38,966 nucleotides of DNA from Patescibacteria group bacterium (lineage in GTDB: Bacteria; Patescibacteriota; Patescibacteriia; Magasanikbacterales; GWA2-37-8): the NCBI GenBank assembly GCA_004321885.1, contig SCQK01000005.1, positions 1 through 38,966 on the forward strand, read 5' to 3'. Both the position numbers and the translations under genes were made by a program. A model generated the notes under the pieces. It ran no database searches. It was not told where the DNA came from and saw only the letters and a program-made list of their open reading frames with translations. Of the stretch, positions 1,507 through 37,000 are shown piece by piece. Each line of letters opens with the position of its first letter. Within the stretch, counting starts at the first letter, position 1.

Positions 1507-1530
1507 TCCCTCCCCTAATAGGGGAGGGGA
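1507..1530. repeat. family-1 palindromic element (CCCTCCCC-TAATA-GGGGAGGG); supplies GGAGG SD for gene at 1541
   Basis: perfect inverted repeat ccctcccctaataggggaggg directly upstream of ATG 1541. Confidence 0.8.
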
Positions 1531-1540
1531 ATAATAAACT

Positions 1541-2965
1541 ATGCAAATATCTTTTTTTGGGGCGGCGAGGGAGGTGACCGGCTCGTGCAATTTGCTTGAA
1601 GCGGGCAAGCACAAAATTTTGATTGACTGCGGCATGTTTCAGGGCAGTGATTTTAATGAGGGAAAAAATTCCGACCCCCTGCCGTTTAATCCGGCCGAAC
1701 TCTCGGCCGTAATTGTCACGCACGCGCACTTGGACCACACCGGCCGTTTGCCACTTTTAATCAAAGGCGGATTTGATGGATATTTCTACGCCACGCCTGC
1801 CACGGTGGAATTGACCCAGTTGGTTTTGGAAGACGCGCTGGAAGTGATGGTATACAACAACCGCAAGTTCGGCAGTCCGATTTTGTACAGCCAAGAAGAC
1901 GTGGCCGGCGTGATGGGGCGGTTCAAGGCGGTGGAGTACGGGGAGACGATGTGTTTACCCCTCCCTCGCCCTCCCCTTATAAAGGGGAGGGGAAATGTTC
2001 GCCTCCCCCTTAATAAGGGGGAGGAACAGGAGGGGGTCGGAATGACAATGTACGATGCCGGGCATATTTTTGGTTCGGCTTTTGTGGAAATTGAAGCCGA
2101 AGGCAAGAGAGTGGTTTTTTCCGGCGACATCGGCAACGTGGATGTGCCTATTTTGAAAGACACGGAGCCGCTCATGGAAAATATTGACGCGCTGATTTGC
2201 GAATCCACTTATGGCAACCGTTTGCACGAGAGCGCCGCGCAAAGGCAAGACATCATTGAAAAGTTTGTCAAAGAGGCCATCGCGCGCGGCGGCACCTTGA
2301 TGATACCGTCGTTTTCTCTGGAGCGCACGCAGGAACTTTTGTACATCTTAAACGATTTGACGGACAGAAAGCACAAACTGCCACGGGTGCCGATTTTTCT
2401 GGACAGCCCGCTGGCCATTGGCGCGACCAAGGTTTACCGCAAATATCCGCGCTATTATGACGAGGACGCGGTTAAGTTGTTTAACGAAGGCGACGACTTG
2501 TTTGAATTTCCGGGCCTCACCATGTGCGACACGAAAGAAGAATCAAAGCGAATAAACCAGGTGCCTAATCCGAAGATAATTATCGCCGGAGCCGGCATGA
2601 TGAACGGCGGCAGGATTTTGCATCATGCCTTGCGCTATTTGACCGACGAGCAGAGCACTTTGCTGATTATCGGATATCAGGCGCAAAATACTTTAGGCCG
2701 GCAAATTCTGGACGGCAAATCCCCGGTGCGCGTGATGGCGGAGAATATTCCGGTGCGCTGTAGCGTGCAAGCCATCGGCGCGTTGTCGGCGCACGCTGAC
2801 CAGGAAAAATTACTGGACTGGATGGGCGGAGGAAAAATGCTGCCTAAAAAAGTTTACCTTAATCACGGCGAGCCCGAGGCAAGCGATGGTTTGGCCGCGC
2901 GGCTCAAAGAGGATTTTGGAGTGAAAGCGACGGTGGTGAATTTGGGATTGAGTGTGAAGGTTTGA
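1541..2965 (+). CDS. MBL-fold beta-CASP ribonuclease (CPSF73/RNase J-like family), 474 aa, with in-frame palindromic-element insert
   Basis: MQISFFGAAREVTGSC...LIDCGMFQG N-terminus and HAHLDHTGRLP (HxHxDH) motif typical of beta-CASP RNA-metabolising metallo-beta-lactamases; internal segment LPLPRPPLIKGRGNVRLPLNKGEEQEG encoded by two tandem family-1 repeat copies. Confidence 0.85.
   Translation: MQISFFGAAREVTGSCNLLEAGKHKILIDCGMFQGSDFNEGKNSDPLPFNPAELSAVIVTHAHLDHTGRLPLLIKGGFDGYFYATPATVELTQLVLEDALEVMVYNNRKFGSPILYSQEDVAGVMGRFKAVEYGETMCLPLPRPPLIKGRGNVRLPLNKGEEQEGVGMTMYDAGHIFGSAFVEIEAEGKRVVFSGDIGNVDVPILKDTEPLMENIDALICESTYGNRLHESAAQRQDIIEKFVKEAIARGGTLMIPSFSLERTQELLYILNDLTDRKHKLPRVPIFLDSPLAIGATKVYRKYPRYYDEDAVKLFNEGDDLFEFPGLTMCDTKEESKRINQVPNPKIIIAGAGMMNGGRILHHALRYLTDEQSTLLIIGYQAQNTLGRQILDGKSPVRVMAENIPVRCSVQAIGALSAHADQEKLLDWMGGGKMLPKKVYLNHGEPEASDGLAARLKEDFGVKATVVNLGLSVKV
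1957..1994. repeat. family-1 palindromic element, copy inside RNase CDS (in frame)
   Basis: cccctccctcgccctccccttataaaggggagggg; translated PLPRPPLIKGRG. Confidence 0.8.
2001..2025. repeat. family-1 palindromic element, second tandem copy inside RNase CDS
   Basis: cgcctcccccttaataagggggagg; translated RLPLNKGEE. Confidence 0.75.
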
Positions 2966-2990
2966 AATAATTTATAGTTAGTTATCCACA

Positions 2991-3016
2991 GCCCGCCCAA
3001 GGCGGGCTTTTTTGTT
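2991..3016 (+). terminator. Rho-independent terminator
   Basis: gcccgcc-caa-ggcgggc stem followed by TTTTTTGTTGTT. Confidence 0.75.
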
Positions 3017-3051
3017 GTTAAATTAGCGCAAAAAGAAAATGGGTGGGAGTG

Positions 3052-3080
3052 TTGACGAGTGTTTTGAAGTGGTGTAAAAT
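3052..3080 (+). promoter_or_regulatory. sigma70-like promoter for mraZ operon (TTGACG-17-TAAAAT)
   Basis: TTGACG at 3052-3057, 17-nt spacer, TAAAAT at 3075-3080, ~45 nt upstream of mraZ. Confidence 0.55.
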
Positions 3081-3123
3081 GGAATGTAGTGGGGAAATGT
3101 GGAGATGCTGAAATAAATTCAGC

Positions 3124-3567
3124 ATGACAATCAGTATGTTCATAGGTGAATTTTCGCACAACTTGGATGACAAGGGCCGGTTGGCTGTCCCGAAAAAGTT
3201 CAGGAGCGATTTGGCCAAGGGAGCGGTTGTAACGCGCGGACTGGACAACTGTCTTTTTCTTTACACAAAAAAAGAATGGGAGAAGCTGGCGCAGAAATTG
3301 GCGACGCTACCTTTTGCCAGCGCCAACAACCGGGCGTTTTCGCGCCTGATGTTGGCCGGCGCGATGGATGCCGAGGTTGACGGACAGGGCAGAGTGATGT
3401 TGCCGGAATATTTGCGCCGTTTCGCCAATTTGAAAAAGAACGTGGTCATAGCCGGTCTTTATAACCGGCTGGAAATCTGGGATGAAGAGATATGGAACAA
3501 ATACAAAGGAGCGACCGAGGCCGAGAGCGGGGCCATAGCCGAGAAAATGGCAGAATTGGGGGTTTAA
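3124..3567 (+). CDS. mraZ: transcriptional regulator MraZ
   Basis: two MraZ/AbrB-like repeats with DxKGRxxxP motifs (LDDKGRLAVPKKFR; VDGQGRVMLPEYLR); MFIGEF N-terminus (alternative start at 3136); followed by rsmH. Confidence 0.9.
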   Translation: MTISMFIGEFSHNLDDKGRLAVPKKFRSDLAKGAVVTRGLDNCLFLYTKKEWEKLAQKLATLPFASANNRAFSRLMLAGAMDAEVDGQGRVMLPEYLRRFANLKKNVVIAGLYNRLEIWDEEIWNKYKGATEAESGAIAEKMAELGV

Positions 3568-3618
3568 TGAAATTTTCAATGCTCAATGATCAATTTTCAA
3601 TCAATTATCAATTCGCAA

Positions 3619-3673
3619 TTGGAAATTGATAATTGGAAATTCATTGGAAATTGTAAATTGTAAATTGGAAATT
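3619..3673. promoter_or_regulatory. array of TTGGAAATT/GTAAATT direct repeats in mraZ-rsmH intergenic region
   Basis: aattggaaattgataattggaaattcattggaaattgtaaattgtaaattggaaatt; same motif (reverse complement) recurs at 8153-8169. Confidence 0.4.
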
Positions 3674-3675
3674 AT

Positions 3676-4599: not shown

Positions 4600-4608
4600 A
4601 TTTCGTTT

Positions 4609-4989
4609 ATGATTTCCAACTGTCATTCCTGCGCAAGCAGGAATCCATCAATATCCAAACGCGCGCGTTTAGTAAGATTTTTTCAAAACATCTCTTTGCC
4701 GGGTTGGCTGACTTCGGTCGCGTTTAGATTAATTTGCCTGGCGATCGCGGCCGGATTCGGTTTCCTGTATGTGGCGAAGACAGCGTCTACGTCCGCGAAC
4801 GGATACAAAATAAATACTCTGGAAAAAGAAACCATCGCGCTGGAAAAAGAAATAGATGAATTGCAGGTGCGGCTGGCCGATTATAGCTCCATGCAAAATA
4901 TTCAAAGCCGGCTGGCCCAGTCCAATATGGCGCCGGTAACTGAATTGAGTTTTTATTCTTCGGTCGGAAAGATTGTGGCCAAGCGATAA
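4609..4989 (+). CDS. FtsL-like cell-division protein (single TM + coiled coil); true start probably downstream of the family-2 element (e.g. TTG near 4700)
   Basis: ORF 4609..4989; TM helix LICLAIAAGFGFLYV followed by coiled coil TLEKETIALEKEIDELQVRLADY; location after rsmH as in dcw clusters; first 13 codons of ORF are the translated hairpin repeat. Confidence 0.45.
   Translation: MISNCHSCASRNPSISKRARLVRFFQNISLPGWLTSVAFRLICLAIAAGFGFLYVAKTASTSANGYKINTLEKETIALEKEIDELQVRLADYSSMQNIQSRLAQSNMAPVTELSFYSSVGKIVAKR
4621..4647. repeat. family-2 hairpin element (TGTCATTCCTGC-gcaagc-GCAGGAATCCA)
   Basis: tgtcattcctgcgcaagcaggaatcca; related copies at 10229, 24045, 34599, 35575, partial at 9794. Confidence 0.7.
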
Positions 4990-5368: not shown

Positions 5369-5369
5369 T

Positions 5370-8150: not shown

Positions 8151-8152
8151 CA

Positions 8153-8169
8153 AATTTCCAATTTCCAAT
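8153..8169. promoter_or_regulatory. AATTTCCAATTTCCAAT direct repeats (reverse complement of TTGGAAATT array at 3619)
   Basis: caaatttccaatttccaatg in intergenic region after ClpC-like gene. Confidence 0.35.
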
Positions 8170-8182
8170 GTCAAATTTGACA
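8169..8182. promoter_or_regulatory. perfect 14-nt palindrome TGTCAAATTTGACA upstream of MraY/WecA-like gene (candidate operator)
   Basis: self-complementary tgtcaaatttgaca ~70 nt upstream of ATG 8251. Confidence 0.35.
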
Positions 8183-8250
8183 TTAGTCATCGGACATTGA
8201 TTGGAAATGCTTCCCTTCGGTCAGAAAAAGGGTAATTAAAATTTGATATT

Positions 8251-9285
8251 ATGGCTTATTTTTTTTCTGCCTTTCTACTATCTGTATTGCTTACATTTAT
8301 AGTAAGAAAGCTCGCGATACGTTTGAATGTGATGGATATTCCCGATGGCGGGAGAAAGGCACACTCCGGAAAGGTGCCGCTTCTTGGGGGAGCGGCGATT
8401 TTTTTTGCGTTTTGGGCCGTGATTTTTTATTTGTTTTTTTATCCGACAGCCGGAGTGGAACTTTTACAAGAAAAATTATTGGCGGCATTTTTCGCGAGTT
8501 TGGTAATCATGGTTATTGGTTTTATTGATGACGCGCGGCCGCTTCCAGCCAAAATCCGTTTTTTGATCACGGCTTTGGCCATCGGCGCGGCGGTTTTATT
8601 TACGCCGTGGCTCGGAAAAATCACCAATCCGCTGGGCGGGGTTTTGGAATTGGGTTTGGTGTTTGGCAATGTGCTTGCTTTTTTCTGGCTGCTCGGCATG
8701 ACTTATACCACTAAAATTTTGGACGGTTTGGATGGGTTGGCGACGGGTATAGCGGCTATCGGCGCTTTGATGATATATTTTTTATCCAGTTCGCAAAAGT
8801 ATCATCAACCCAACGTGGCGTTGTTGGCGCTGATTTTAGCCGGGGTCCTGTTCGGGTTTTTGCTTTTCAATTTTCATCCGGCCAAGATTTTTTTGGGCGA
8901 GAGCGGCAGTTTGCTGGTTGGTTTTTTACTCGCAGTGCTCGCCATCATCGCCGGCGGCAAAATCGCCACGGCTTTACTCGTGCTCGCTATTCCCATTTTG
9001 GATTTGGCGCGCGTCGTTTATTTGCGTTTGGCGCGGGGCCAGCCGATTTCGCAAGGCGACCGCGAACATTTGCATTTTCGTTTGCTTGACATGGGCATGA
9101 GCCAGCGCCGCGCCGTGCTTTTGCTTTACGGCGTCGCGCTTGCTTTTGGATTGTCCACTTTGTTTTTACAGTCATATCAAAAGTTAATCGCCTTGCTTTT
9201 TTTGGTTGTAGCCATGGGCGTGGCGGGCGTGTGGTTGCGCCGACGTTCCCCTCCCCTTTATAAGGGGAGGGATAGGGAGGGGTAA
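8251..9285 (+). CDS. polyprenyl-phosphate sugar-phosphate transferase, MraY/WecA (GT4/PNPT) family; C-terminal 13 codons are a family-1 repeat
   Basis: multi-TM; DIPDGGRKAHSGKVPLLGG, IGFIDDARPL, KILDGLDGLATG motifs of MraY/WecA family; tail RRRSPPLYKGRDREG is translated palindromic element. Confidence 0.8.
   Translation: MAYFFSAFLLSVLLTFIVRKLAIRLNVMDIPDGGRKAHSGKVPLLGGAAIFFAFWAVIFYLFFYPTAGVELLQEKLLAAFFASLVIMVIGFIDDARPLPAKIRFLITALAIGAAVLFTPWLGKITNPLGGVLELGLVFGNVLAFFWLLGMTYTTKILDGLDGLATGIAAIGALMIYFLSSSQKYHQPNVALLALILAGVLFGFLLFNFHPAKIFLGESGSLLVGFLLAVLAIIAGGKIATALLVLAIPILDLARVVYLRLARGQPISQGDREHLHFRLLDMGMSQRRAVLLLYGVALAFGLSTLFLQSYQKLIALLFLVVAMGVAGVWLRRRSPPLYKGRDREG
9246..9282. repeat. family-1 palindromic element (inside 3' end of CDS; provides SD for next gene)
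   Basis: ttcccctcccctttataaggggagggatagggagggg. Confidence 0.8.
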
Positions 9286-9288: not shown

Positions 9289-9774
9289 ATGTTTTTCAAA
9301 AAACGCGAAAACAAACAAATAAAAAAATGGGAGTGGATAATGCTTTTGGTTATCCTCGGTTTTTCCATTTTCGGCAAAATATATTATTCGCGTTGGCCCA
9401 CCGCCGTGGTGAAAATCGGGGGGCGGGAAGTGAGCGTGCTGGTGGCGGACAACGAATTGCACCGATTCAAGGGTTGGAGCAAGCGCGACGATATGGGCAA
9501 ATACGGCGGCATGCTGTTTGTATTTCCCGAGCGCGGCCAGCACGCCATGGTGATGCGCGATATGCGTTTTCCTTTGGATATTATTTGGATAGACGGCACG
9601 AAGATTGTGGATATAGCGCCAAATCTTCAACCGGACCCGGCTAATACCGAAGCTGGACTGACCCCATATTTCGCCCGTTTACCTTCTACTTTGGTATTGG
9701 AATTATCCTCGGGTTTCACTCAGAAAAACGGGGTAAAAATAGGGGATACTATTTCTATTTCCTCCCCCTATTAG
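9289..9774 (+). CDS. DUF192 domain protein
   Basis: N-term TM then GWSKRDDMGKYGGMLFVFPE...MRDMRFPLDIIWIDG pattern characteristic of DUF192/COG1430; stop codon TAG is the loop of a family-1 element. Confidence 0.7.
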   Translation: MFFKKRENKQIKKWEWIMLLVILGFSIFGKIYYSRWPTAVVKIGGREVSVLVADNELHRFKGWSKRDDMGKYGGMLFVFPERGQHAMVMRDMRFPLDIIWIDGTKIVDIAPNLQPDPANTEAGLTPYFARLPSTLVLELSSGFTQKNGVKIGDTISISSPY

Positions 9775-9782
9775 GGGGAGGG
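9761..9782. repeat. family-1 palindromic element (cctccccctattagggggaggg)
   Basis: perfect inverted repeat; loop TATTAG supplies stop codon of DUF192 gene. Confidence 0.8.
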
Positions 9783-10228: not shown

Positions 10229-10260
10229 GGATTCCCCCGACTTAGTCGGGGGAATGACAG
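10229..10260. repeat. family-2-related hairpin (attcccccgac-ttag-gtcgggggaat + gacag)
   Basis: ggattcccccgacttagtcgggggaatgacag just upstream of rplU. Confidence 0.6.
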
Positions 10261-10578: not shown

Positions 10579-10593
10579 CTACCCCCTCTTAGT

Positions 10594-10615
10594 CTCCCCC
10601 TTATAAAGGGGGAGA
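10594..10615. repeat. family-1 palindromic element (tctcccccttataaagggggaga)
   Basis: perfect inverted repeat between rplU stop and recR stop. Confidence 0.8.
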
Positions 10616-11248
10616 TTTTGTTGTTCGGTTTTTTATCGCGCTGGAGAGGGTGATGTCGTCGGCGTATTGCAAGTCGCCGCCCATGGGCAGGCCCTTGGCC
10701 AAACGCGAGACCTTGAGCCCGGGCGCCGCGGCTTTTATTTTTTTCTCCAAGTACATCATCGTGATTTCGCCGGCCAAATCCGGATTAAGGGCGAGGATTA
10801 TTTCTGTAAGCCCCTTACCCCCCCCTAACTCTCCCCTTATAAAGGGGAGGGAAACCCTGTTCAGCAATTCTTTTATTTTAATTTTTTTCAAACTGTCTTC
10901 GTCGTCGGCTTGCAAAACGCCGCGCAAAACGTGGTAAACTCCGACGAACGCGCCGGTGCTTTCTATGGCTTGCAGATCTTGCGGTTCGGCCACCACGCAG
11001 ATACGCGAACGGTCGCGTTTGGGGTCGCGGCAAATCGGGCAGGGATTAACGTCGCCGAAATCCCAGCATGTCTCGCAACTTTTGGTGTTGGCCAGCAATT
11101 CGTTCAGCGCGCCGCGCAGTTCGTTCACTTCGCCCTTGCCGGTTTTGAGCCAATGATAAATAAACCGTTCAGCGGTTCTTTGCCCGACTGACGGCAGTTT
11201 TTTCAGAGAGCTTAAAAGACGTTTAATTGAAGGTGATTGCATAGCCAA
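10601..11248 (-). CDS. recR: recombination protein RecR (with in-frame family-1 insert)
   Basis: KLPSVGQRTAERFIYH HhH, C4 zinc finger CETCWDFGDVNPCPIC, Toprim ICVVAEPQD, GVYHVLRGVL; internal LPFIRGELGGGKG segment encoded by palindromic element 10811-10852. Confidence 0.9.
   Translation of the reverse strand: MAMQSPSIKRLLSSLKKLPSVGQRTAERFIYHWLKTGKGEVNELRGALNELLANTKSCETCWDFGDVNPCPICRDPKRDRSRICVVAEPQDLQAIESTGAFVGVYHVLRGVLQADDEDSLKKIKIKELLNRVSLPFIRGELGGGKGLTEIILALNPDLAGEITMMYLEKKIKAAAPGLKVSRLAKGLPMGGDLQYADDITLSSAIKNRTTKSPPL
10811..10852. repeat. family-1 palindromic element inside recR CDS
   Basis: ccccttacccccccctaactctccccttataaaggggaggga. Confidence 0.75.
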
Positions 11249-11263
11249 ACCCCACCCTTTATT

Positions 11264-11303
11264 CCTCCCCTTGATTCCGCGCGCGAAGCGCGCCTAGGGG
11301 AGG
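11264..11303. repeat. family-1 palindromic element, variant with nested GC hairpin in loop
   Basis: cctccccttgattccgcgcgcgaagcgcgcctaggggagg between ybaB and recR. Confidence 0.7.
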
Positions 11304-11607: not shown

Positions 11608-11633
11608 AGATGTTTTTATACCCCACACTTTAT

Positions 11634-11666
11634 CCCTCCCCTAAAAGGGGAGGGGCATGGGGAGGG
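11634..11666. repeat. family-1 palindromic element (ccctcccctaaaaggggaggggcatggggaggg)
   Basis: inverted repeat between dnaB stop and ybaB start; left flank ccccacacttta resembles flank of copy at 11252. Confidence 0.8.
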
Positions 11667-11671
11667 TTTAA

Positions 11672-13270: not shown

Positions 13271-15373
13271 ATGCTTAAAAAAATTCTGTTTTTGGTGGTA
13301 ATTTGCGGCTTGATTTACGCCAATCTGGCCTATTGGCGCGCTGGCTGGCTTGGGCTGTTTTTTTTGTTTATTTATTTGGTCGCGGTTCAGGCCCCGGCTT
13401 TTCACGTATTGCATAAATTTTTTAACTTTCCCAATGCTTGGCGCACCAGGGCGCTGGCTGGTTTTTTCGCGTTCGCGATTTTGGGTTCAATGCTTGGAGT
13501 AATTGTCGTGTTCGCGCGTTTTACCGCCGAGACTATCGCGCTCGCTTTTTTTGCCAATGGCCTGCTTTTGAGCGCGCTCGCCTGGTGGGCGGCGCGGGCG
13601 CGCAAAAATGAAGCCGAGAATTTCGGCGAAGACACGGTTTATCAAAATGCCCTGCCCGAATTTTTAGCCGTGGTTTATTTTTTGCTTTTGGCCGTTGGCG
13701 CGCTTGTTTTGTACTGGTCAAAAACCGGCCGCGAACTGGCCAGCCCGTGGCAAACCATTTCTCCCTACTATATATATATCTTCTTCGCGGCCACCTTTGT
13801 TTTAGGCCTGCTGATTTTTTCCAAACTGCGCGCCAAGACCGTGCTTTTTCTTTTAGTGGCGCATTCGCTTTTATTGCATGCCTATCTGCCGCTCACGCAC
13901 CAGCTGGTTTATGGCGCGGACCAGTGGCGGCATATTGCTTCGGAAACGCGGCTCATCGCCAGCGGGCAAGCGCCCGCTATTTCCGCCGGCCTTTTTTCAT
14001 ACAGTCAACTGTGGGGCATTGAGGCGTCTTTGTCGCGCCTGTTTGACGCGCCGCTCTTCACAATCAACGGCTATCTTTTGCCGCTTGCCTGGTCATTGAT
14101 TTTCCCCTTGCTTTTATTTGAGCTGGCCCAGGCCCTAAGCTACAACAAGCGCAAGTCGCTGTTTTTTGCCTGGCTCGGATTTTTGTTTTTTGCCTGGCAG
14201 GCGGCCGGCTCGTTTACCTTGCCGAACAATTTTGGTTTTTTGGTATGGCTGTTTTTATTTTTGCTGTTGATAAAAAGAATAAATTTTTCCAGACGCGAGC
14301 AGATTATTGTATTGGCTGTCGCCGCGTTCATGTCGTTTTTCGGGTACGCATTGTATTTGATTTTGTTTTTGGTTGCCTGGGCGCTGGTGGAAATTTTCGT
14401 TTGGCGACGATACTCCCACCTCGCCTCCCCCTTAGTAAGGGGAGGGAAACAGGAGAGGGTATGGGTGTTGGTTTTAACATTTATCACAGCAGTCTTCATT
14501 ATTCCCGCCGCGGAAATCGCGGGCGGCTTCGCGCGGTTTGGCGCGCCCGTGGATTGGCTCGCGCAAATCAAACAAATGGCCGGCAATTTCTCGGCGTATT
14601 TTTTGGCCAACGGCCCGCGACCGCACGATATTTTGGGCGGCAATATTTTGTTTAATCAAACGCCGGCCTACGCTTTTGTGGAAAATATTTTTACTGCTTG
14701 GCGCTGGCCCCTCGCGGTTTTCGCGATTTTGTTTTTTGTTTTCGCGATGAGCGGGGCGTTCATCATTTTCCGGCGCCGGACAGCCGCGCATAAATGGGCG
14801 CTCGCTTATTTAAGCGGCTTGTTTTTGTCTTATCTCGCTGTTTTTTATTTTTTTCTCGGGGAAAAAATTCTGACGCGCCGGCTGGACAACGTATTGGCCC
14901 TGCTTTTTATTTTAGCCGCGTTGGCCGCTCTGGCGGCTCTTTTTGACAGATACAAAAAACCGGCGGCTATTGTGGCGCTGGTGTTTATTTTGTCCGCGGC
15001 CATGGCGGCCTCGTATTCGCTCGGGCCCGACACGCGGGCCATGAGCGCGGATGAATACAACGCCATGCGTTATGTTTGGGAAAATGAAAAGAGCGAAAAA
15101 AAACACTGCGTGCTGGCCGACACCATGCCGCTGTTGGCTTTGGAGGCGCTGTCCGGCAAAGAAATAGTCGGCGGCGGATTTCCCATTAACAAATATTTCG
15201 CCCAGCCAGAGAGAGTGGAATTGCTCAAAGAGGCAAAGGAAAATTTGAATGCTATCTCAATAAACAAATCATTGGCGCTTACCGGCGCGGATAAGTGCTG
15301 GATAGTTGGGGAGTTTAATTTGCCTGACGCGAAAAATTTTGGGAAAGTGAATGTAGGGAGGTACGGTAAATAA
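13271..15373 (+). CDS. large polytopic membrane protein (700 aa, >=12 predicted TM helices), function unknown (possibly GT-C-like glycosyltransferase)
   Basis: long ORF with regularly spaced hydrophobic helices; contains in-frame family-1 element (HLASPLVRGGKQE) at 14424. Confidence 0.6.
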   Translation: MLKKILFLVVICGLIYANLAYWRAGWLGLFFLFIYLVAVQAPAFHVLHKFFNFPNAWRTRALAGFFAFAILGSMLGVIVVFARFTAETIALAFFANGLLLSALAWWAARARKNEAENFGEDTVYQNALPEFLAVVYFLLLAVGALVLYWSKTGRELASPWQTISPYYIYIFFAATFVLGLLIFSKLRAKTVLFLLVAHSLLLHAYLPLTHQLVYGADQWRHIASETRLIASGQAPAISAGLFSYSQLWGIEASLSRLFDAPLFTINGYLLPLAWSLIFPLLLFELAQALSYNKRKSLFFAWLGFLFFAWQAAGSFTLPNNFGFLVWLFLFLLLIKRINFSRREQIIVLAVAAFMSFFGYALYLILFLVAWALVEIFVWRRYSHLASPLVRGGKQERVWVLVLTFITAVFIIPAAEIAGGFARFGAPVDWLAQIKQMAGNFSAYFLANGPRPHDILGGNILFNQTPAYAFVENIFTAWRWPLAVFAILFFVFAMSGAFIIFRRRTAAHKWALAYLSGLFLSYLAVFYFFLGEKILTRRLDNVLALLFILAALAALAALFDRYKKPAAIVALVFILSAAMAASYSLGPDTRAMSADEYNAMRYVWENEKSEKKHCVLADTMPLLALEALSGKEIVGGGFPINKYFAQPERVELLKEAKENLNAISINKSLALTGADKCWIVGEFNLPDAKNFGKVNVGRYGK
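14424..14445. repeat. family-1 palindromic element inside membrane-protein CDS
   Basis: cctcccccttagtaaggggagg. Confidence 0.8.
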
Positions 15374-19430: not shown

Positions 19431-19439
19431 AGTTGGTAA

Positions 19440-19459
19440 GGGGGAGGGTGAGGGAGGGG
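19440..19459. repeat. half copy (G-rich arm only) of family-1 element
   Basis: gggggagggtgagggagggg without matching C-rich arm. Confidence 0.4.
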
Positions 19460-19462
19460 TAA

Positions 19463-20588: not shown

Positions 20589-20632
20589 TGTGAATTATTT
20601 GTGTCGTTTCGTGTTATAGGATTAGTGGTTCG

Positions 20633-21482: not shown

Positions 21483-21513
21483 ATCGCGCTCTATTATACT
21501 ATAATATCGGCGT

Positions 21514-24044: not shown

Positions 24045-24083
24045 ATCATTCCCGCGAAGCCGCCAGCTGGCGGCCGGAATCCA
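24045..24083. repeat. family-2-related hairpin element (ATCATTCCCGCGAAGC...GGCCGGAATCCA)
   Basis: atcattcccgcgaagccgccagctggcggccggaatcca with inner palindrome gccgccagctggcggc. Confidence 0.55.
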
Positions 24084-24089
24084 GCGCTC

Positions 24090-24914
24090 ATGTCAAACGA
24101 CCAACAAAAAATCATCGCCCGCGAAGAACAGCGGCTGGAATCGCTGGCGGCGGATATTGCCAAATCCCCCAGGCCGGAATTGCTGGCCAAGACCAATTCT
24201 TTGCGCGCTCTGTGGCAGAGATGCAAAGAGGCCGCCAAACAAAAACAGGCTGACCTCAAAATTTTAGTGGAAAAATACGCCGGGGATTTTCTCTCGTTGA
24301 AGTGGGAGGCGGATAAGGCGCGCATTGCCCCGCCGCCGGCCCGCGCGCTGTCGCCGGCGGAAAAAATTATTTTCTCACTGCTCAAAAGAGAGTGGCTGCC
24401 CTTCAAATCCCTGCTTTGCGAAGGCAAGCAGGAGGCGGCGAAAAAATGGATAGTGAGTGTGATAAATTTTTGTCTGAAAGAAACAAATCAGGAGGCGGGA
24501 AAATGGAGTAAAGAGGCGGAGGCCATTGCCCAAAAAGCGTGCGACACGGTGTTGGCTTTGGCCAACGAGCAAAAACACAGAATTAAAGACGGTTTTTTGA
24601 AAAAAATATTCGGCGGCCGGAGCGACGCGGAAAAAATAGCCGAGCTGATACGGCGCGATTTTATCACCCCGGGCCAACTGGCCGAACTGGTGGCCGGCGA
24701 AGTGAAAGCGATATTAAGCCAGCCCTTGCCCGCGGCGCTCGCCGACGCCAAACCTGTCATTCTGGCTCCCGAGCCGGAATCCATCGCGGGAATCCAGAGC
24801 GCATTGGAGACGAAGGAGATAATTTCGGAAGAGGCGGCATCAGCGGACGACTGGGGCGAGGACGAAGACGACAAAGAGCCCTGGGAGCAGGGCAAAGAGG
24901 GGATAGCGGGCTGA
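24090..24914 (+). CDS. hypothetical alpha-helical protein with acidic C-terminus (275 aa)
   Basis: ORF 24000..24914 trimmed to ATG 24090 after the hairpin element; stop overlaps next start (ATGA). Confidence 0.5.
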   Translation: MSNDQQKIIAREEQRLESLAADIAKSPRPELLAKTNSLRALWQRCKEAAKQKQADLKILVEKYAGDFLSLKWEADKARIAPPPARALSPAEKIIFSLLKREWLPFKSLLCEGKQEAAKKWIVSVINFCLKETNQEAGKWSKEAEAIAQKACDTVLALANEQKHRIKDGFLKKIFGGRSDAEKIAELIRRDFITPGQLAELVAGEVKAILSQPLPAALADAKPVILAPEPESIAGIQSALETKEIISEEAASADDWGEDEDDKEPWEQGKEGIAG

Positions 24915-25735: not shown

Positions 25736-25763
25736 CATCCCTCCCTTTTAGGGGAGGGGCAGG
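25736..25763. repeat. family-1 palindromic element (catccctcccttttaggggaggggcagg)
   Basis: inverted repeat ccctccc-tttta-ggggagggg. Confidence 0.75.
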
Positions 25764-25793
25764 CCACCACACCAAAGATTTTGGTGTGGTGGC
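25762..25793 (+). terminator. 12-bp hairpin (gccaccacacca-aagatttt-tggtgtggtggc)
   Basis: perfect 12-bp stem immediately after family-1 element. Confidence 0.5.
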
Positions 25794-25812
25794 AGAGGGT
25801 GGGGTTTGATGT

Positions 25813-31600: not shown

Positions 31601-33487
31601 ATGAGCGATGAGAGAAACGAGGGAAGGAGCCCCCTCTGGAACGGCTCCCGGGACGAGGGCCCGCAGCGACCCCACACACCAACGCTTGATGGTCTGGTAG
31701 CTGTGGTCGACCAGCCGGAGGAGCAGCCCGCACTGCTTCATTGCCCGTGCGGGTGGCAGGTGTACTCGCGGGCTACGGCGAAGATAGCCATGGTCAGCAA
31801 CTCGTGTCCGCTGACCGGAGACGAGCTGGCCCTGACGGTGGAGGATGTTGCGAAGCTCGCGGACGAACTTCGCGATGTCCACGCCTTCCCCATCCGCACC
31901 TTCTTTCAGAAGGTGCAGTTCCCGGTGACGGTCGTCTGCGACTGCGGCGACTCGGAGCTGGAATTGGTGGAGAGCGGGGTGGAGGAGGAGTGTGTGAAGT
32001 GCCGCCGGCACTATGTCATTACCGCGGACGCGGAGATGTACATGGTGATTGACAAGAAATTGGCGCGGCCGGACACGCTCCGCACCGGCCAGCCCGTGGC
32101 GCCCACGGCTTCGGGTGAGGTGGACTCGCGTCCGACCATCGCGCCGGCCGGGCCCGACGAGGAAACGCGGGTCGGAGAGCCTGTCCCGCTGGTGGAGACG
32201 TCGGACGTCCCGGACGACGCCCAGACCAGCGAGCGCGTTTCGCCTCCGCCGGAGGAGTCTGGTCATCAGATGGTCCAGGCGCCGGACGCCGACCCCTCGG
32301 ACTTCGAGGGCAAGAGCCCGACGGCTCCTGGCGTAATACCCGAAGAGGAGCTGGTGGCTCTGGAGCTGATGGCTTCGTTGGCAGCGGCCGCCAGCGGTCC
32401 GGCCCAGGGCCCGGCTTTTGACCAGTCGGGTATGGCCGTGTTGGACGTGAACTGCCCGGAGTGCAGAAGGGTCTTCACGGTCAATCGCGAGCTGGGTGCG
32501 GCGATGTGTCCGCACTGCAGGGCCGTGTTTGAGGTTTTGGTAGCGGGCGGCCGGGTTGAGTTTGTCCGGTGCGTGGTGCCGGGCAACAAACTGCCTCCGC
32601 CCACCCCGCTCGACGCGGGCGGCAGAACCCAGCAGGGCTTTGTCTCGCCCGTGCCGCCGAGGCAGGACCCGCCGACGTTGGATCAGCCCCTCGCCCAGCT
32701 CGATGTTCTTCGGGACAAGAGCCGCGAGAGGTCACAGCCCGGCGAGTCCGAGGCGTCTGCGTTGCCAGCACCCGCGGAGGCGATTCCGCTCTCCGCCATC
32801 GCGGCGCCGACCGGCGTCGGACCGAGCTTCAAGCTGGTGGACGTCTCCCGGGCGCGTTTGCGCGCGAGCGTCAGTCTCGGCCCGAAGGACCGACAGTCAA
32901 CGGGCGAGATTCGCCCAGCGGCGCGTCGCCTGCCTCGCTGGGTCCATGGCGCGTTCGGCGTGCTCGGGCTCGGATTCTGTGTGCTCTTGGGGATAGTGCT
33001 GAATCAGGGCGCTCTCCTCAAGGAGAACACGCGGCGGAGCCAGGCGGCCGAGCAGAAGAGTGCCGCGGCCGAGGAGCAGAGCAAGGCCGCGGCGAAGGAT
33101 AGTGCCGAGGCTGTGCTCAAGAGCGCGCGGGCCGAAGTTGAGGCCAAGACCGCCAGAAAAACGGCGGACAAGGCCAATACCCGATTGGACACGCAGGAGG
33201 CGGCGCGCGAGAAGCTGGACAAGGAGCTCGCCGCCAGCGCACGGTCTGTCGCCGCCTTCCAGAAGGCGACGAATACGGCCATTGGGAACATCAAGGGCCA
33301 GGTCGCTAGACAGAGTGCTGATCTGCGTCAGACAATCGCAAGGGCGCAGGCAACGCTTGACCAAATCAAGCGCGACCTGGCTTCGGCGAACGCGGCGCCC
33401 GCCAAGCGCGTCCCGCCATCGTTCCTACCCGCCAAGGTTCCCAAGATGCGCCCCCCGGATCACCTGATACGGCGTCGCAACGACTAA
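31601..33487 (+). CDS. zinc-ribbon (MJ0042-like) / single-TM / C-terminal coiled-coil protein, GC-rich
   Basis: three CxxC...CxxC pairs (HCPCGW..SCPLTG; CDCGDS..CVKCRRH; NCPECRRVF..CPHCRAVFEV); TM VHGAFGVLGLGFCVLLGIVL; A/K/Q-rich coiled coil; GGAGAGAG SD before ATG 31601. Confidence 0.55.
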   Translation: MSDERNEGRSPLWNGSRDEGPQRPHTPTLDGLVAVVDQPEEQPALLHCPCGWQVYSRATAKIAMVSNSCPLTGDELALTVEDVAKLADELRDVHAFPIRTFFQKVQFPVTVVCDCGDSELELVESGVEEECVKCRRHYVITADAEMYMVIDKKLARPDTLRTGQPVAPTASGEVDSRPTIAPAGPDEETRVGEPVPLVETSDVPDDAQTSERVSPPPEESGHQMVQAPDADPSDFEGKSPTAPGVIPEEELVALELMASLAAAASGPAQGPAFDQSGMAVLDVNCPECRRVFTVNRELGAAMCPHCRAVFEVLVAGGRVEFVRCVVPGNKLPPPTPLDAGGRTQQGFVSPVPPRQDPPTLDQPLAQLDVLRDKSRERSQPGESEASALPAPAEAIPLSAIAAPTGVGPSFKLVDVSRARLRASVSLGPKDRQSTGEIRPAARRLPRWVHGAFGVLGLGFCVLLGIVLNQGALLKENTRRSQAAEQKSAAAEEQSKAAAKDSAEAVLKSARAEVEAKTARKTADKANTRLDTQEAAREKLDKELAASARSVAAFQKATNTAIGNIKGQVARQSADLRQTIARAQATLDQIKRDLASANAAPAKRVPPSFLPAKVPKMRPPDHLIRRRND

Positions 33488-33572
33488 CCGAGCGCTCTTT
33501 CCGCGGCGTGTGTGAGTATGTAAGCAGAGGTGAATGAAAATTCCTTCCGCTTCCCTCCCACTCCACACGCCA

Positions 33573-33620
33573 ATCCCCCTATGATTCCAAATTTTGGAAT
33601 TATAGGGGGATTTTTGTTTT
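33573..33620 (+). terminator. long palindrome + T-run (atccccctatgattccaaa-tt-ttggaattatagggggat TTTTGTTTT)
   Basis: near-perfect 19-bp inverted repeat followed by U-run, downstream of zinc-ribbon gene. Confidence 0.55.
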
Positions 33621-33631
33621 ATTCAAATTTT

Positions 33632-33652
33632 CCTCCCCTATTAGGGGAGGGG
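33632..33652. repeat. family-1 palindromic element in GC-rich segment (cctcccctattaggggagggg)
   Basis: identical core to copy at 1507. Confidence 0.8.
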
Positions 33653-33711
33653 CAAGGGGTGGAGTTTTACCTTTATCTTAGCCAAAATTCGTTCTCTTAT
33701 CGAAAAATCTC

Positions 33712-33740
33712 TTGACAGAAATACCGAACTGTGCTATTCT
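33712..33740 (+). promoter_or_regulatory. sigma70-like promoter (TTGACA-17-TATTCT)
   Basis: cttgacagaaataccgaactgtgctattct upstream of ORF 33787/33892. Confidence 0.45.
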
Positions 33741-33891
33741 TAACAGTTAAAATCAAATTAGTTTCAATGCGCGAGAGAGGCATTGTATGAGGATTTCACT
33801 CATCAAGCCACTCCCGCGTCCACGGGTTTTTTTCTTTACAATCGTCTCTGACATTAGTAATGCCGGAGCACAACAAGAAAGGAGGCCAGGA

Positions 33892-34515
33892 ATGGCCGAT
33901 GAACCGAAAGTCATCGTCGAGGTAGACAAGGAGTGTCTTTTTTGCAAGCGGGACATCCCCCAGCTCCAGGAGGAGCTGGCGGGTGTGAAGAAGTTGCAAG
34001 AGGCGCAGGAGGACGCGGTCGGTGGCAGTTTGCGCCGACTGCGTATGGGTATGACGGCCTTCGCGGTCGCGTTGGCGTTGATTGTCGTCATCAGTCTTGT
34101 TGTGGTTTACATCCGCCTGACCGAGACGACGGGCCAGCGCGCCGCTCCGGTTCCCAGCCGGCTGGTCCAGCGCTTGTCCCAGACAGAACAGCGTCTGGGC
34201 AAGCTGGAGGGGACCATCGGGCTTTTGAAAAGCGCGATGGAGAGGCTTGCGGAGCAGTTCGGAAAGGTGCTCTCCGACATCACCAAGATGCCGAAGGCAT
34301 CACAACCGCCTGCCTCCCAGCCGGTGGTCACTGCGCCGCCGCTCCGGACAACGCCGCTTGTCAAGACGGCCAAGCCGAGTGAAAGAGAGGGCCTGTTGCC
34401 CTGCAAGCAGGAGAAGGAGTCCTGCGTAAAGGGGAATGAAGGTCGCGTCGGCAAGGAGAGGGCCCTGCAGTTTTGCGCCACTTTCTTCAGACAGGGAGGG
34501 CCGAACTGCAAGTGA
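33892..34515 (+). CDS. hypothetical TM + coiled-coil protein, GC-rich (start could be 33787)
   Basis: AGGAGG 6 nt upstream of ATG 33892; TM AFAVALALIVVISLVVVYI; coiled-coil segment. Confidence 0.45.
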   Translation: MADEPKVIVEVDKECLFCKRDIPQLQEELAGVKKLQEAQEDAVGGSLRRLRMGMTAFAVALALIVVISLVVVYIRLTETTGQRAAPVPSRLVQRLSQTEQRLGKLEGTIGLLKSAMERLAEQFGKVLSDITKMPKASQPPASQPVVTAPPLRTTPLVKTAKPSEREGLLPCKQEKESCVKGNEGRVGKERALQFCATFFRQGGPNCK

Positions 34516-34598
34516 GTAGGGTCTCCTCACCGCCACGCCGCATTCCAGCCGCCGAGACCCATCCAACCCAATGTATATGACTGTTATTTCGGTACGCT

Positions 34599-34630
34599 AT
34601 GTCATTCCTGCCATAAGAGCAGGAATTTAT
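34599..34630. repeat. family-2 hairpin element in GC-rich segment
   Basis: tgtcattcctgccataagagcaggaattta; upstream flank cccaatgtatatgactgtt shared with copy at 35575. Confidence 0.7.
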
Positions 34631-34873
34631 CACCGGAATTCACGGTCGTATACAGTGAATTTGGAAGGAACATTACAATAAGCGAAATGAGCGAGTAAAT
34701 AATTTTGCTTGCAAAATTATTTCGAGCGAATGAGCTTTATATCATTGATATATTCTGGTTCGCAAAAAGGACAGGTGTCATTGCGAGCGAAGCAATCCCG
34801 TCTTATTTGCGACCCAGAATTTCAACCCGGTTTCCGCCTGCTGGACGCAGGCAAAAATGAAAGGAGGCACATT

Positions 34874-35470
34874 ATGTGCCGTCTGATCGGAGAGCTCGAC
34901 GGCGAGCTGTTCGCCGTCGAGCTGAACAAGCTCGGCGCTGTCCCCCCCTCCCCCAACCAGCCCCCGGCGGCCCCGCCCCGGCCCGGCGGCGGCGCCCAGC
35001 CGCCCGTTGGCGCGGGCGCGCCCCCCGCGGGCGCGTGCAGGGCCACGCCCTGCCGGTTCTCGTCGTGGCTGATCATTGCCGCGGTGGGGCTGGCAGCGGT
35101 GGCGATCATCATCACGATGATCGCCCTGCGCGACGGCAAGTCGGCGCAGGTCGCGCCCGCGGTCGCCCCGACCAAGTCGGTGCCGGCTACTCCGGCTGCC
35201 GCGGCCGCGACGCCCGCCAAGCCGGCACTCCCCCCCAATCAGATTGGCGCCCTGCCGGTCTACGGGGGCGGCGTGCACCTCCCCAGCATCACGCTGGAGG
35301 TCGCTCGCCCGCCGGTTGCGCCCGCGCCGGTCCTACCGCCCTTGGCCCCGCCGCCCGCGCCGAGCGCGGCGTTCCCGTCCTGTGACCAGGACGCGGAGTG
35401 CCTCGCGCTTGTCGCCGCCCACGGCGCCGGCGCCCGCCCCCGCTGCCCGCAGTTCTTCAACTGCCGGTAG
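34874..35470 (+). CDS. Pro/Ala-rich single-TM hypothetical protein
   Basis: AAAGGAGG SD 6 nt upstream of ATG 34874; TM WLIIAAVGLAAVAIIITMIAL; PA-rich low complexity. Confidence 0.45.
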   Translation: MCRLIGELDGELFAVELNKLGAVPPSPNQPPAAPPRPGGGAQPPVGAGAPPAGACRATPCRFSSWLIIAAVGLAAVAIIITMIALRDGKSAQVAPAVAPTKSVPATPAAAAATPAKPALPPNQIGALPVYGGGVHLPSITLEVARPPVAPAPVLPPLAPPPAPSAAFPSCDQDAECLALVAAHGAGARPRCPQFFNCR

Positions 35471-35574
35471 CGTGCGTCACCCCGCCGGGCCTTGTGGCTC
35501 GGCCCCTCCTTTCAACCCAGGGTCGGACATTCGCCTCGCGACTGTCCGACCCTTCCATCCCAATGTTTACGATT

Positions 35575-35603
35575 GTCATTCCTGCCCACGAGCAGGAATC
35601 CAC
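35575..35603. repeat. family-2 hairpin element (tgtcattcctgcccacgagcaggaatcca)
   Basis: same arms as 4621 copy. Confidence 0.7.
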
Positions 35604-35671
35604 AATGGCAAACATTGATAGTGGAGTACATTACAACACTCACGGTGTGAAGTTATCTGCCCCTCCTCACT

Positions 35672-35696
35672 CCTCCCCCTTTATAAGGGGGGGAGG
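35672..35696. repeat. family-1 palindromic element (cctccccctttataagggggggagg)
   Basis: inverted repeat in GC-rich segment. Confidence 0.8.
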
Positions 35697-35941
35697 CGGG
35701 GAGGGGGTATAGCTCCACCCCGTGAGAATTATCACGGTTTGATATAGCAACCAGGCCGATTTCTTCAAACGCAAAATCCCCACCCATGTGGGACCGCGAA
35801 CCGCTGTATATACCCCTTTGGACCAAAAGTCCGAAAACGGGAAACAGCGCAAGCGGATAAGAAGAAAACGGCTTAGCAAGTTCATGAAGTATAGGCCGGC
35901 CCTGCACGCGCGAGCGGAGGGTCAAAAAAAGGAGAAGAACG

Positions 35942-36793
35942 ATGTTGAAGATGGTTGCGGCGATGATCGCCGCGCTGTACATCCTCGCGGTGAGTGCCAC
36001 CTCGGCGCTCGCCCAGAACACCCCCCCCGCGGCGGTCGCTCCGGCCGCGAAGTCATCGGCGATGCAAATCGCCGACCTCACCCTGAAGTTCGAGAAGGCC
36101 GAGAGCGACATCGCGTCGCTGAAGGCCAAGCTCGCGGCGCCGGCCCCGACCGCGCCAGACGGCAAGGCATTGTGCCAGTTCTGGGCACCGTGCAAGAACG
36201 CCGTCGCCGACGAGGCGGGGAAGATCCAAACGGTGATCAAGACCATCAAGGTCAAGATTGCCGACCCATCTCTCCTCGCCAAGCTCCGCCTGGCGGAGCT
36301 CGAGCTCGCGAAGCTCACCGAGCGGCTCGGCGCCCAGGCCGGGCTGGCCCAGCACAACGCGGAGGCCGCGAAGGGCCAGCTCGCGCTGGCTGGTCAGGTT
36401 CTGGCCATGGGTCAGCACCCGGAGCTCGCGAAGTACGCGCGGTGTCGGGGCGGCTTCAAGCTCAGGACCACGGTCTACACGCCGACGAGTTCAACCCTTT
36501 CGCTCGACTGTGAGCGAGAGGTTGACCTCGCGCGGGTGGAGAAGGTGGAGGGCCCGCTCGCCGCTGCCCAGGCGGCCGCGGCCGCTCGCCAGCCCCTCGC
36601 GCCCCCACCCGCGCCGGAGAAAAAGTCCGGCCGGTGCGGAACCGGTTGTATCATCGCGGCCATCACGATCCCGGCTGCGATCGTCGGTGCCGTGGTCGTC
36701 GGTGCTCTGCTCGCCACCCGTGAGGACCACAACACGGTGGTGACACCGACGAAGACGACCTCCGCGCTGAGCATCCGGTTCAAGGGGCTGTAG
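35942..36793 (+). CDS. secreted coiled-coil protein with signal peptide and C-terminal TM anchor
   Basis: AAGGAG SD before start; signal peptide MLKMVAAMIAALYILAVSATSALAQ; C-terminal TM CIIAAITIPAAIVGAVVVGALLA. Confidence 0.5.
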   Translation: MLKMVAAMIAALYILAVSATSALAQNTPPAAVAPAAKSSAMQIADLTLKFEKAESDIASLKAKLAAPAPTAPDGKALCQFWAPCKNAVADEAGKIQTVIKTIKVKIADPSLLAKLRLAELELAKLTERLGAQAGLAQHNAEAAKGQLALAGQVLAMGQHPELAKYARCRGGFKLRTTVYTPTSSTLSLDCEREVDLARVEKVEGPLAAAQAAAAARQPLAPPPAPEKKSGRCGTGCIIAAITIPAAIVGAVVVGALLATREDHNTVVTPTKTTSALSIRFKGL

Positions 36794-36980
36794 GCTGTAG
36801 ATAGTACACACGCGTCTCTGAGACATTGCGCGTGCACTCCCAATGATCTGTACAACCGATCCCAATCGGGCGTACAGTTACGGGAGGGTCTCGCCATTGC
36901 GCACGCGCAATGGCTCCCAATTATTTTCCTATGCTACGCATGGGGAAATTGAGGGAATAGATCATTACAACAACAAACTG

Positions 36981-37000
36981 CCTCCGCCGATAAGGGGAGG
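36981..37000. repeat. degenerate family-1 element (cctccgccgataaggggagg)
   Basis: partial inverted repeat upstream of lipoprotein gene. Confidence 0.4.

Follow-up and report, generated by a model that had tools for sequence, protein, structure and literature searches.

Triplex-motif-class palindromic repeats, several of them in frame within conserved genes, on a Patescibacteria contig

What is a short G/C-rich palindrome doing inside the reading frames of conserved genes? The question arises from a 38,966-bp contig (SCQK01000005.1 of NCBI GenBank assembly GCA_004321885.1) of a Patescibacteria metagenome-assembled genome (MAG), on which palindromes of the type CCTCCCC-loop-GGGGAGG recur at gene junctions, at the 3' ends of genes, and in frame within conserved genes, as the initial annotation had proposed and as we confirm here. 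The window is this entire contig, and all counts of copies cover it alone. The three-block architecture of the elements, their relatives in Escherichia coli and across phyla, and the literature together place the family in a known class, that of the BoxC repeats, also called potential intrastrand triplex (PIT) elements or triplex motifs (TMs), with the E. coli repeat TMECO as prototype; it is not a new kind of element. The family had been taken to be undescribed, which holds only for its host group, in that our literature searches on palindromic elements, miniature transposable elements with inverted repeats (MITEs), and the arm sequences in Patescibacteria, or Candidate Phyla Radiation (CPR) bacteria, returned nothing relevant. 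The new points are that the host belongs to the Patescibacteria, that the copies are dense (14 in 39 kb), that some of them are two-sided or double, and that conserved genes have been colonized in frame repeatedly.

A strict pattern, CC[CT]CCCC-N2-10-GGGG[AG]GG, matched the contig nine times, against a mean of 0.005 and a maximum of 1 in 200 dinucleotide-preserving shuffles. A general hairpin scan found 12 perfect family palindromes with stems of 7 to 10 bp and A/T loops, and two degenerate copies (11250-11303 and a half copy at 19438-19462) raise the total to 14, in keeping with the earlier count of at least 14. The units measure 21 to 83 nt, and 8 of the 14 copies lie in the small noncoding fraction, mostly directly after stop codons. 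The loops had been given as TTATAA or CTAATAG types; their A/T character stands, but when the stems are fully extended only 3 nt of A/T are left. That the arms form hairpins, also claimed earlier, agrees with very stable predicted folds (−16 to −54 kcal/mol).

The palindrome, described initially as 20 to 40 nt long, is real, but the element extends further and includes a flanking third arm. When half-elements were aligned from the center outward, a second G-rich block appeared 2 to 5 nt past the purine arm, on one or both sides, as in AAGGGGAGGG-ata-GGGAGGGGTA. A full unit is about 36 nt long and runs from a pyrimidine arm (CCCTCCCCTT) through a 3-nt A/T loop, a purine arm (AAGGGGAGGG), and a spacer of 2 to 5 nt to a mirror purine arm (GGGAGGGGTA); many copies here are two-sided, with a third arm at each end, or contain two hairpins. 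We scanned the window by the published ITxF rules, which call for a pyrimidine stem, a loop, a complementary purine stem, a second loop, and a third strand running antiparallel to this purine stem, in G*G-C, A*A-T, or T*A-T triads with at most one mismatch. This returned nine strand instances at seven loci, with stems of 8 to 10 nt; three of the nine were perfect across 10 triads, and the 100 shuffled sequences gave no hit. Window units have the three blocks of an intrastrand triplex motif (class II, purine motif), a class in which the pyrimidine stem measures 6 to 15 nt, and their third block runs antiparallel to the purine stem: scored at n = 10 with at most one mismatch, mirror third arms outnumbered direct repeats by 5 to 0 in the window and by 132 to 39 among the 120 other-genome loci listed. 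This mirror symmetry is the one required for a purine-motif triple helix, the folding itself being a prediction. The dinucleotide TA that adjoins most outer arms is what the mirror rule predicts 3' of the outer arm, where it faces the AA/TT pairs of the stem top.

The composite element within the coding sequence (CDS) of a beta-CASP RNase illustrates how such units combine. Its hairpins at 1969-1991 and 2002-2024 are flanked on the outside by the arms ACCCCTCCCT and AGGAGGGGGT, and each hairpin forms a TM with the outer arm beside it (minus strand, 1956-1991; plus strand, 2002-2038). The composite (1956-2038) is predicted to fold into a Y-shaped three-way junction at −54.5 kcal/mol. Its minus-strand unit differs from the plus-strand unit at 9249-9284 at only 2 of 36 bases, both in a spacer, while the one lies within a CDS and the other at a gene end; such near-identity suggests recent copying.

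To place the family more widely, we scanned other genomes, one per species, with the hairpin alone as the query (18 specified bases), a design that, like that of the viral scan described below, gives breadth and not abundance or true taxonomic distribution. The hairpin matches listed cover at least 120 loci in cyanobacteria, Alpha-, Beta-, Gamma-, and Deltaproteobacteria, Bacteroidota, Chloroflexota, Spirochaetota, Clostridia, and Saccharibacteria, with near-identical units in Nostoc, Sphingomonas, Xanthomonadales, Geobacter, Bacteroidota, and Saccharibacteria. The flank, which was not part of the query, carried GGG[ATG]GGGG within 16 nt in 104 of the 148 listed hairpins, compared with 0.55% of random 16-nt windows. 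Compared with the 9249 copy, the Nostoc unit (CCCTCCCCTTTATAAGGGGAGGG-tta-GGGTGGGGTAA) shows 2 changes in 37 positions and, like the RNase insert, it is accompanied by a second hairpin; in Sphingomonas the copies are arranged as inverted doublets, and Proteobacteria have AT-GGGG in place of the TA beside the outer arm. Rfam had zero family matches in the window or in 12 element-bearing loci of other phyla.

Relatedness by sequence to the known class may be seen in E. coli. A BLAST search of complete genomes with the 9249 copy matched the intergenic BoxC pair between hrpB and mrcB, CCCCTCGCCCC-tat-GGGGAGAGGG-ata-GGGTGAGGGG-taa, at 79.5% identity over 44 nt with identical TAT and ATA loops, the BLAST E value being 3 for this short query. 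The stems of the 9249 copy and of the TMECO consensus disagree at N positions. Closer to the window, three Patescibacteria contigs carry units whose stems differ while all three blocks covary: CCCTCTCCT/AGGAGAGGG/GGGAGAGAT in L121, CCCTCCT/AGGAGGG/GGGAGGT and CCCCCCT/AGGGGGG/GGGGGGT in L122, and CTCCCTCTT/AAGAGGGAG/GAGGGAGTT within lepA in L123.

These three contigs also bear on the idea that the element is at heart a G-quadruplex. The arrangement GGGGAGGG-nnn-GGGAGGGG supplies four G-tracts, and a switch between hairpin and quadruplex could be the selected property. ViennaRNA with its G-quadruplex model indeed favored a three-layer quadruplex (−24.7 kcal/mol) over the hairpin (−19.6 kcal/mol) for the 9249 copy and the Nostoc unit. 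However, the units of L121, L122, and L123 keep the three-block mirror layout without four G3 tracts, and in two-sided copies both G arms are paired with C arms. We therefore reject the quadruplex as a conserved feature, relatives lacking the four G-tracts, and consider it very unlikely to be what the element is selected for.

A further parallel comes from viral DNA. Many IMG/VR contigs (L018, L027, L041, L070, L088, L100, L109, and others) carry CCTCCCCT-loop-AGGGGAGG, to which another, unrelated hairpin is directly joined, with GGAGGGG after it. The window copy at 25739-25805 is laid out in the same way, an unrelated 14-bp hairpin (25763-25793) preceding the third arm GGGTGGGGT (25797-25805), and this suggests that a modular form of the element occurs on phage-like DNA.

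Five copies lie in frame: two in the RNase and one each in RecR, a 700-amino-acid (aa) membrane protein, and the tail of the GT4 (WecA/MraY family) transferase. The gene calls given earlier for these hold. In the RNase, residues 140 to 167 pair with just 4 residues of Thermus thermophilus TTHA0252, and most of the 120 close homologues are 450 to 451 aa long and have no such segment. In the AlphaFold2 model of the RNase (mean predicted local distance difference test score [pLDDT], 87), the insert forms a coil where strand 136-139 turns toward strand 166-172, and pLDDT falls below 50 at residues 148 to 162. RecR has about 10 additional residues compared with both solved RecR structures and the syntenic relative, as well as a four-residue C-terminal tail derived from the element; GT4 has an element-derived C-terminal extension of 10 to 12 residues. 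A variable loop that lies between transmembrane helices accommodates the insert of the membrane protein, which more than 70 homologues lack. In-frame copies are thus found in disordered loops or termini and, because the orthologues lack the segments, they represent lineage-specific insertions, a point that the initial annotation had proposed to check by aligning orthologues.

The initial annotation had also raised the converse, namely, that orthologues might share these peptides as ancestral sequence or that the palindromes might be assembly artifacts. We found nothing in favor of either. The segments are missing from the orthologues of RNase, RecR, GT4, and the membrane protein, the copies sit in many distinct and otherwise intact contexts, and related elements occur in independent assemblies, complete genomes included, all of which excludes this reading for practical purposes.

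Besides peptides, the element donates stop codons. The unit at 9249-9284 forms the final 12 codons of GT4 (SPPLYKGRDREG), and its terminal TA together with base 9285 makes the GT4 stop TAA (9283-9285), with the DUF192 ATG 3 nt downstream. The unit at 10580-10615 begins 2 nt past the rplU stop, and its loop contains the stop codon of recR, TAA (10601-10603; tail ...KSPPL*). The DUF192 stop TAG (9772-9774) is likewise supplied by the element, as had been noted; it straddles the loop and the 3' arm of the hairpin at 9761-9781. A related claim, that in-CDS copies are read in the sole frame that avoids the loop stops, did not survive: in either orientation, two of the three frames usually contain no stop (41 of 72 frames overall), and both open frames are in use, giving different peptides.

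In-frame colonization is not confined to the window. In L123 the G domain of LepA contains, in frame, a perfect 9-triad TM unit with a different stem sequence (6028-6060, minus strand); the insert that includes it adds 24 residues compared with Aquifex LepA. Beyond the CPR, in-frame copies occur in a UvrA-family gene of a Prolixibacteraceae MAG (L174, about 5915-6365) and in a cyanobacterial pseudouridine synthase, in the linker upstream of the catalytic domain (L242, about 3200-3400). A Saccharibacteria open reading frame (ORF) contains one as well (L182, 311-375). Many lineages have element-type peptides at the turn of the RNase (residues 139 to 168), and on a neighbor-joining tree they are interspersed with relatives that have no insert; examples are SSPSQRRGEGE and TNLPLPEGELEG, and double units are present in P0005, P0060, and P0061. 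About one-third of the RNase homologues (P0001 to P0120) have a loop of at least 9 aa at this turn, and the tree requires at least 22 state changes. A second, unrelated palindrome family (see below) has also given rise to in-frame inserts at the RNase loop in other lineages, with peptides such as LDSRLRGND, and in L124 the turn is filled by its palindrome GTCATTCC...GGAATCC. The loop of the membrane protein is likewise expanded by varied repeat-type peptides (homologues P0134 and P0139). Since varied inserts have accumulated at the same RNase turn across scattered lineages, a permissive-site filter fits better than target specificity.

Could the hairpins instead be regulatory, serving as terminators or mRNA-stabilizing 3' stem-loops, with the GGGGAGG arm as the ribosome-binding site of the next gene? 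Their frequent position just past stop codons and their predicted stability would suit such a role, and the copy at 10591-10617, followed by TTTTGTTGTT, can be called terminator-like. It is the only one that combines a G+C-rich hairpin with a T-run on the plus strand (1 of 12 copies), however, and ordinary terminators exist elsewhere on the contig, for example, at 2990-3008. The initial annotation had read the purine arm as a Shine-Dalgarno (SD) sequence for the RNase and DUF192 genes. The outer arm of the 9249 copy does place GGAGG 8 nt upstream of the DUF192 ATG, but for the RNase gene the core lies about 12 nt from the ATG (the unit there, 1493-1528, sits between a promoter-like site, with its −10 element at 1478-1483, and the ATG at 1541), so that DUF192 alone fits a GGAGG-like core 5 to 10 nt 5' of the start. 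Nor is such a core in general use, and the SD reading is not supported because only 4 of the 25 genes have one. A regulatory signal would leave the copies within CDSs unexplained and gives the third arm no role, and asymmetric copies in other genomes show no convincing orientation bias relative to adjacent genes (27 versus 18, near random). Furthermore, the E. coli relatives lack promoter or terminator activity, according to earlier work cited by Holder et al. (PMC4666352). We regard a primarily regulatory function as unlikely.

Aside from the element, an SD core 3 to 12 nt upstream of the start is rare across the contig (4 of 25 genes; 1 of 22 in the low-GC part), and leaders are A/T rich, so that translation initiation here is apparently largely SD independent.

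A derivative of a DNA transposon is another candidate: a MITE-like element or one resembling the Rickettsia palindromic elements (RPEs), mobilized in trans by a transposase, such as an IS630-type enzyme with TA target duplication or a tyrosine transposase (RAYT) of the kind linked to repetitive extragenic palindromes (REPs). The TA beside most outer arms, the Sphingomonas inverted doublets reminiscent of REPINs, and the in-frame intragenic behavior, known from RPEs (PMC10969869) and from GTAG/CGTC REPs, which are also stop donors (PMC3733652), all speak for it. Yet the TA consists of the mirror-rule third-strand partners of AA/TT pairs, and Proteobacteria have AT-GGGG there instead; the mirror arm was accordingly preferred over a TA target duplication. 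The aligned halves lack a GTAG or CGTC tag, no Y1 or other transposase is present among the window ORFs or near the copies at the listed loci elsewhere, and the RAYT-flanking REP of Nostoc punctiforme is another sequence, which led us to drop the RAYT link. Units of 21 to 36 nt are also far smaller than MITEs (70 to 300 bp) or RPEs (about 150 bp). Descent from a transposon of either kind is therefore improbable.

The explanation that we favor, with a probability of roughly 0.7, is that these are nonautonomous repeats of the triplex-motif class that have multiplied in a gene-dense genome and have been filtered by selection down to tolerated in-frame copies. Because the genome is gene dense, many landing sites would be genes or gene ends. 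Purifying selection would then retain those copies that preserve the frame and avoid the loop stops, as two of three frames do, in surface loops or C termini. The C-rich arm would be read as Pro, Ser, and Leu and the G-rich arm as Gly, Arg, Glu, and Lys, yielding harmless, flexible peptides that suit surface loops. Where a copy ends a gene, its A/T loop or terminal TAA may stand in for the original stop codon, and the SD-like GGAGG would simply come with the purine arm. Should the triplex be the structure that counts, action at the DNA level would be expected, since purine-motif triplexes are not formed in RNA according to Holder et al. (PMC4666352).

Several points weigh against this explanation. 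Mobility is deduced from sequence comparison and not from observed events, and the closest RNase homologue is only 70% identical, so that filled and empty sites are not comparable at the nucleotide level. No transposase is encoded among the window ORFs and no gene family is enriched beside the 120 listed loci elsewhere, where an all-against-all BLAST of the ORFs returned only generic families (ABC, response regulators, kinases, short-chain dehydrogenases/reductases [SDR], and CarB); no target duplication is visible at the window copies. The near-identity across phyla could reflect shared functional constraint instead of selfish spread, and conserved stems with variable loops, together with the three-way covariation, would also fit selection for structure. 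Five copies (9761, 10831, 14424, 25739, and 33632) are without a good third arm, meaning that the triplex architecture is not family-wide, and our triplex-motif scan is a re-implementation of the ITxF rules, not the published tool. Finally, a TMECO single strand forms a stable triplex in vitro, but in vivo footprinting saw no stable triplex (PMC4666352).

A bolder proposal, which we consider doubtful, is that BoxC-type units are actively spreading cross-phylum elements of about 36 nt that copy themselves without a linked transposase, perhaps by way of single-stranded DNA folded as a hairpin or triplex, and that they are a major source of loops and tails in CPR proteins. If this were true, permissive loops (those of RNase, LepA, RecR, and UvrA-like proteins) would have been struck repeatedly, and an unrecognized origin of extra protein loops and tails would come to light.

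The window family matters for further reasons. Its density of about one copy per 3 kb is several-fold above that of Microcystis, the richest reported, by the re-implemented search rules, and essential genes have been entered in frame (RNase and RecR here, LepA in a relative). Many of the odd Pro/Gly-rich segments of 8 to 27 aa and C-terminal tails of Patescibacteria proteins are probably repeat derived and are best left out of account when such proteins are aligned, placed in phylogenies, or modeled structurally. Loop variants and block covariation across CPR lineages also amount to a natural experiment that could reveal selection on the triplex architecture and the mode of copying.

The individual copies and the genes that they touch are collected in Table 1. 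The degenerate copy at 11250-11303 has a second hairpin nested within its loop, and the half copy at 19438-19462 consists of a purine arm and a mirror arm (AAGGGGGAGG-gtg-AGGGAGGGGTAA), the pyrimidine arm being absent.

Table 1. Copies of the palindromic element on the contig, followed by associated genes.
Feature	Coordinates	Strand	Perfect palindrome at	Sequence or remark
TM unit, divergent spacer between pentapeptide gene and RNase gene	1493..1528	-	1508	Minus strand CCCTCCCCTA-t-TAGGGGAGGG-acaca-GGGTGGGGTT
Composite element in RNase CDS	1956..2038	+	1969, 2002	About aa 139-166, PLPRPPLIKGRGNVRLPLNKGEEQEG
Perfect 10-nt TM, 3' end of GT4	9249..9284	+	9249	CCCTCCCCTT-tat-AAGGGGAGGG-ata-GGGAGGGGTA
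Plain hairpin, 3' end of DUF192	9761..9781	.	9761	CCTCCCCCT-att-AGGGGGAGG; without third arm
Perfect 10-nt TM	10580..10615	-	10593	Minus strand TCTCCCCCTT-tat-AAGGGGGAGA-cta-AGAGGGGGTA
Copy in recR CDS	10817..10849	-	10831	aa about 134-144, LPFIRGELGGG; degenerate third arm GGGGGGGGT
Degenerate copy, ybaB/recR junction	11250..11303	-		Minus strand CCCTCCCCT-[GC-rich nested hairpin]-AGGGGAGG-aataa-AGGGTGGGGT
Two-sided copy, dnaB/ybaB junction	11620..11668	.	11634	Third arm each side; TM on both strands
Two-sided copy in 700-aa membrane protein CDS	14412..14461	.	14424	aa about 381-397, SHLASPLVRGGKQERV
Half copy between converging TrwB-like and rplT genes	19438..19462	+		
Copy downstream of orf107	25739..25805	+	25739	Hairpin CCCTCCC-tttt-AGGGGAGGG
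Hairpin 3' of 632-aa ORF, high-GC part	33632..33662	+	33632	Weak third arm AAGGGGTGG
Two-sided copy, high-GC part	35659..35707	.	35672	TM on both strands; folds at −39 kcal/mol
beta-CASP RNase gene	1541-2965			
GT4 (WecA/MraY family) gene	8251-9285			
DUF192 gene	9289-9774			
recR	10601-11248	-		
700-aa membrane protein gene	13271-15373			

The nearest relatives of the contig are Magasanikbacteria-like. It carries a conserved CPR gene block, whose order it shares with L123, comprising the beta-CASP RNase (TTHA0252 type), mraZ, mraW, a ClpB-like ATPase, the GT4 transferase, DUF192, rplU, recR, ybaB, dnaB, and the 700-aa membrane protein, and it also encodes transfer-messenger RNA (tmRNA) and smpB. 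In the tmRNA/SmpB region (20630-21043 and 21036-21941, both on the minus strand), the predicted tag of the tmRNA, ANLFSKVKVAFANMFGVRALAPSFA, is unusually long, and the adjoining SmpB ORF has 301 aa, with the SmpB domain confined to residues 157 to 298. Directly 5' of mraW and of the GT4 gene, at 3602-3635 and 8150-8185, lie A/T-rich palindromes and AATTG-type short repeats (CAATTATCAATT...AATTGATAATTG and AATGTCAA-at-TTGACATT) that may be operator-like sites.

The second palindrome family mentioned above, unrelated to the first, has the form GTCATTCC(T/C)GC-loop-GC(A/G)GGAATCC and occurs at 4622-4646, 34601-34628, and 35575-35601, with related copies at 10231-10258 and about 24045-24090 and half sites GGAATGACA at 2039, 5841, and 9797; in L123 it is found four times near recR, ybaB, and dnaB. 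The G+C content of the contig rises from about 50% to 62 to 66% at 32000-38966, where the ORFs have no Pfam match. Both the triplex-type and the second palindrome families are present on either side of this jump, which argues against a chimeric contig.

To our knowledge, BoxC, PIT, or TM repeats have been known for about 30 years, with no agreement on their function or mode of spread. Several families of short palindromes invite comparison with the window family. Elhai et al. (2008) reportedly described small dispersed repeats (also SDRs) of Nostoc as hairpin-forming mobile repeats of 21 to 27 nt in filamentous cyanobacteria, with genes and other repeats among their insertion sites. Palindromes at the Nostoc loci of the present scan are of similar size (21 to 23 nt), a likeness in size. 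REPs and REPINs share with the window family short palindromes (20 to 40 nt), a location mostly 3' of genes, inverted doublets, and stop donation; some GTAG/CGTC REPs are intragenic, including in replication and repair genes, and their ends often give stop codons (PMC3733652; PMC3116915). The conserved flank is a mirror purine arm here, whereas in REPs it is a tetranucleotide tag, and with no RAYT among the window ORFs the elements are not assigned to the REP/REPIN-RAYT system. RPEs, to which the elements had been likened at the outset, are about 150 bp long and insert in frame into conserved genes, with peptides compatible with protein function (PMC10969869). The parallel in behavior is sound, in-frame palindromic insertion into conserved genes being common to both, but membership fails: RPEs (about 100 to 150 bp) have a conserved peptide specific to each family and are known from Rickettsia, whereas the window units are 21 to 83 nt long, possess a third arm of the triplex type, and recur almost unchanged in many phyla. 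The distinction drawn here is one of size, peptide, and architecture.

The closest fit is to the G/C-rich class II intrastrand triplex motifs of Holder et al. (2015), whose prototype TMECO, 5'-CCCTCNCCC-N3-6-GGGNGAGGG-N3-GGGNGAGGG, equals the BoxC repeat and the PIT element of E. coli (PMC4666352, and Hoyne and Maher [2000] as cited there). TMECO has 3,610 copies across 262 proteobacterial genomes, and Microcystis, Anabaena, and Nostoc have very many G/C-rich motifs; it shows no orientation bias, occurs occasionally in inverted pairs, has stems that are more conserved than its loops, and is not associated with transposons, and it is reported to go with increased local genome variability, so marking unstable loci (PMC4666352). 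The window units share with it the layout of a C-rich stem, a loop of 3 to 6 nt, a G-rich stem, a loop of about 3 nt, and a mirror G-rich stem, as well as stems better conserved than loops, either strand orientation, inverted pairs, and the lack of a linked transposase; a similarity of sequence (CCCTCNCCC and CCCTCCCC) may also exist. They differ in density and placement: in E. coli K-12, TMECO is present in 23 copies in 4.6 Mb and is always intergenic (PMC4666352), whereas the window holds 14 copies in 39 kb, of which 5 lie in frame in genes and 3 donate stop codons. In addition, many of the window copies are two-sided or have two hairpins, and their host belongs to the Patescibacteria.

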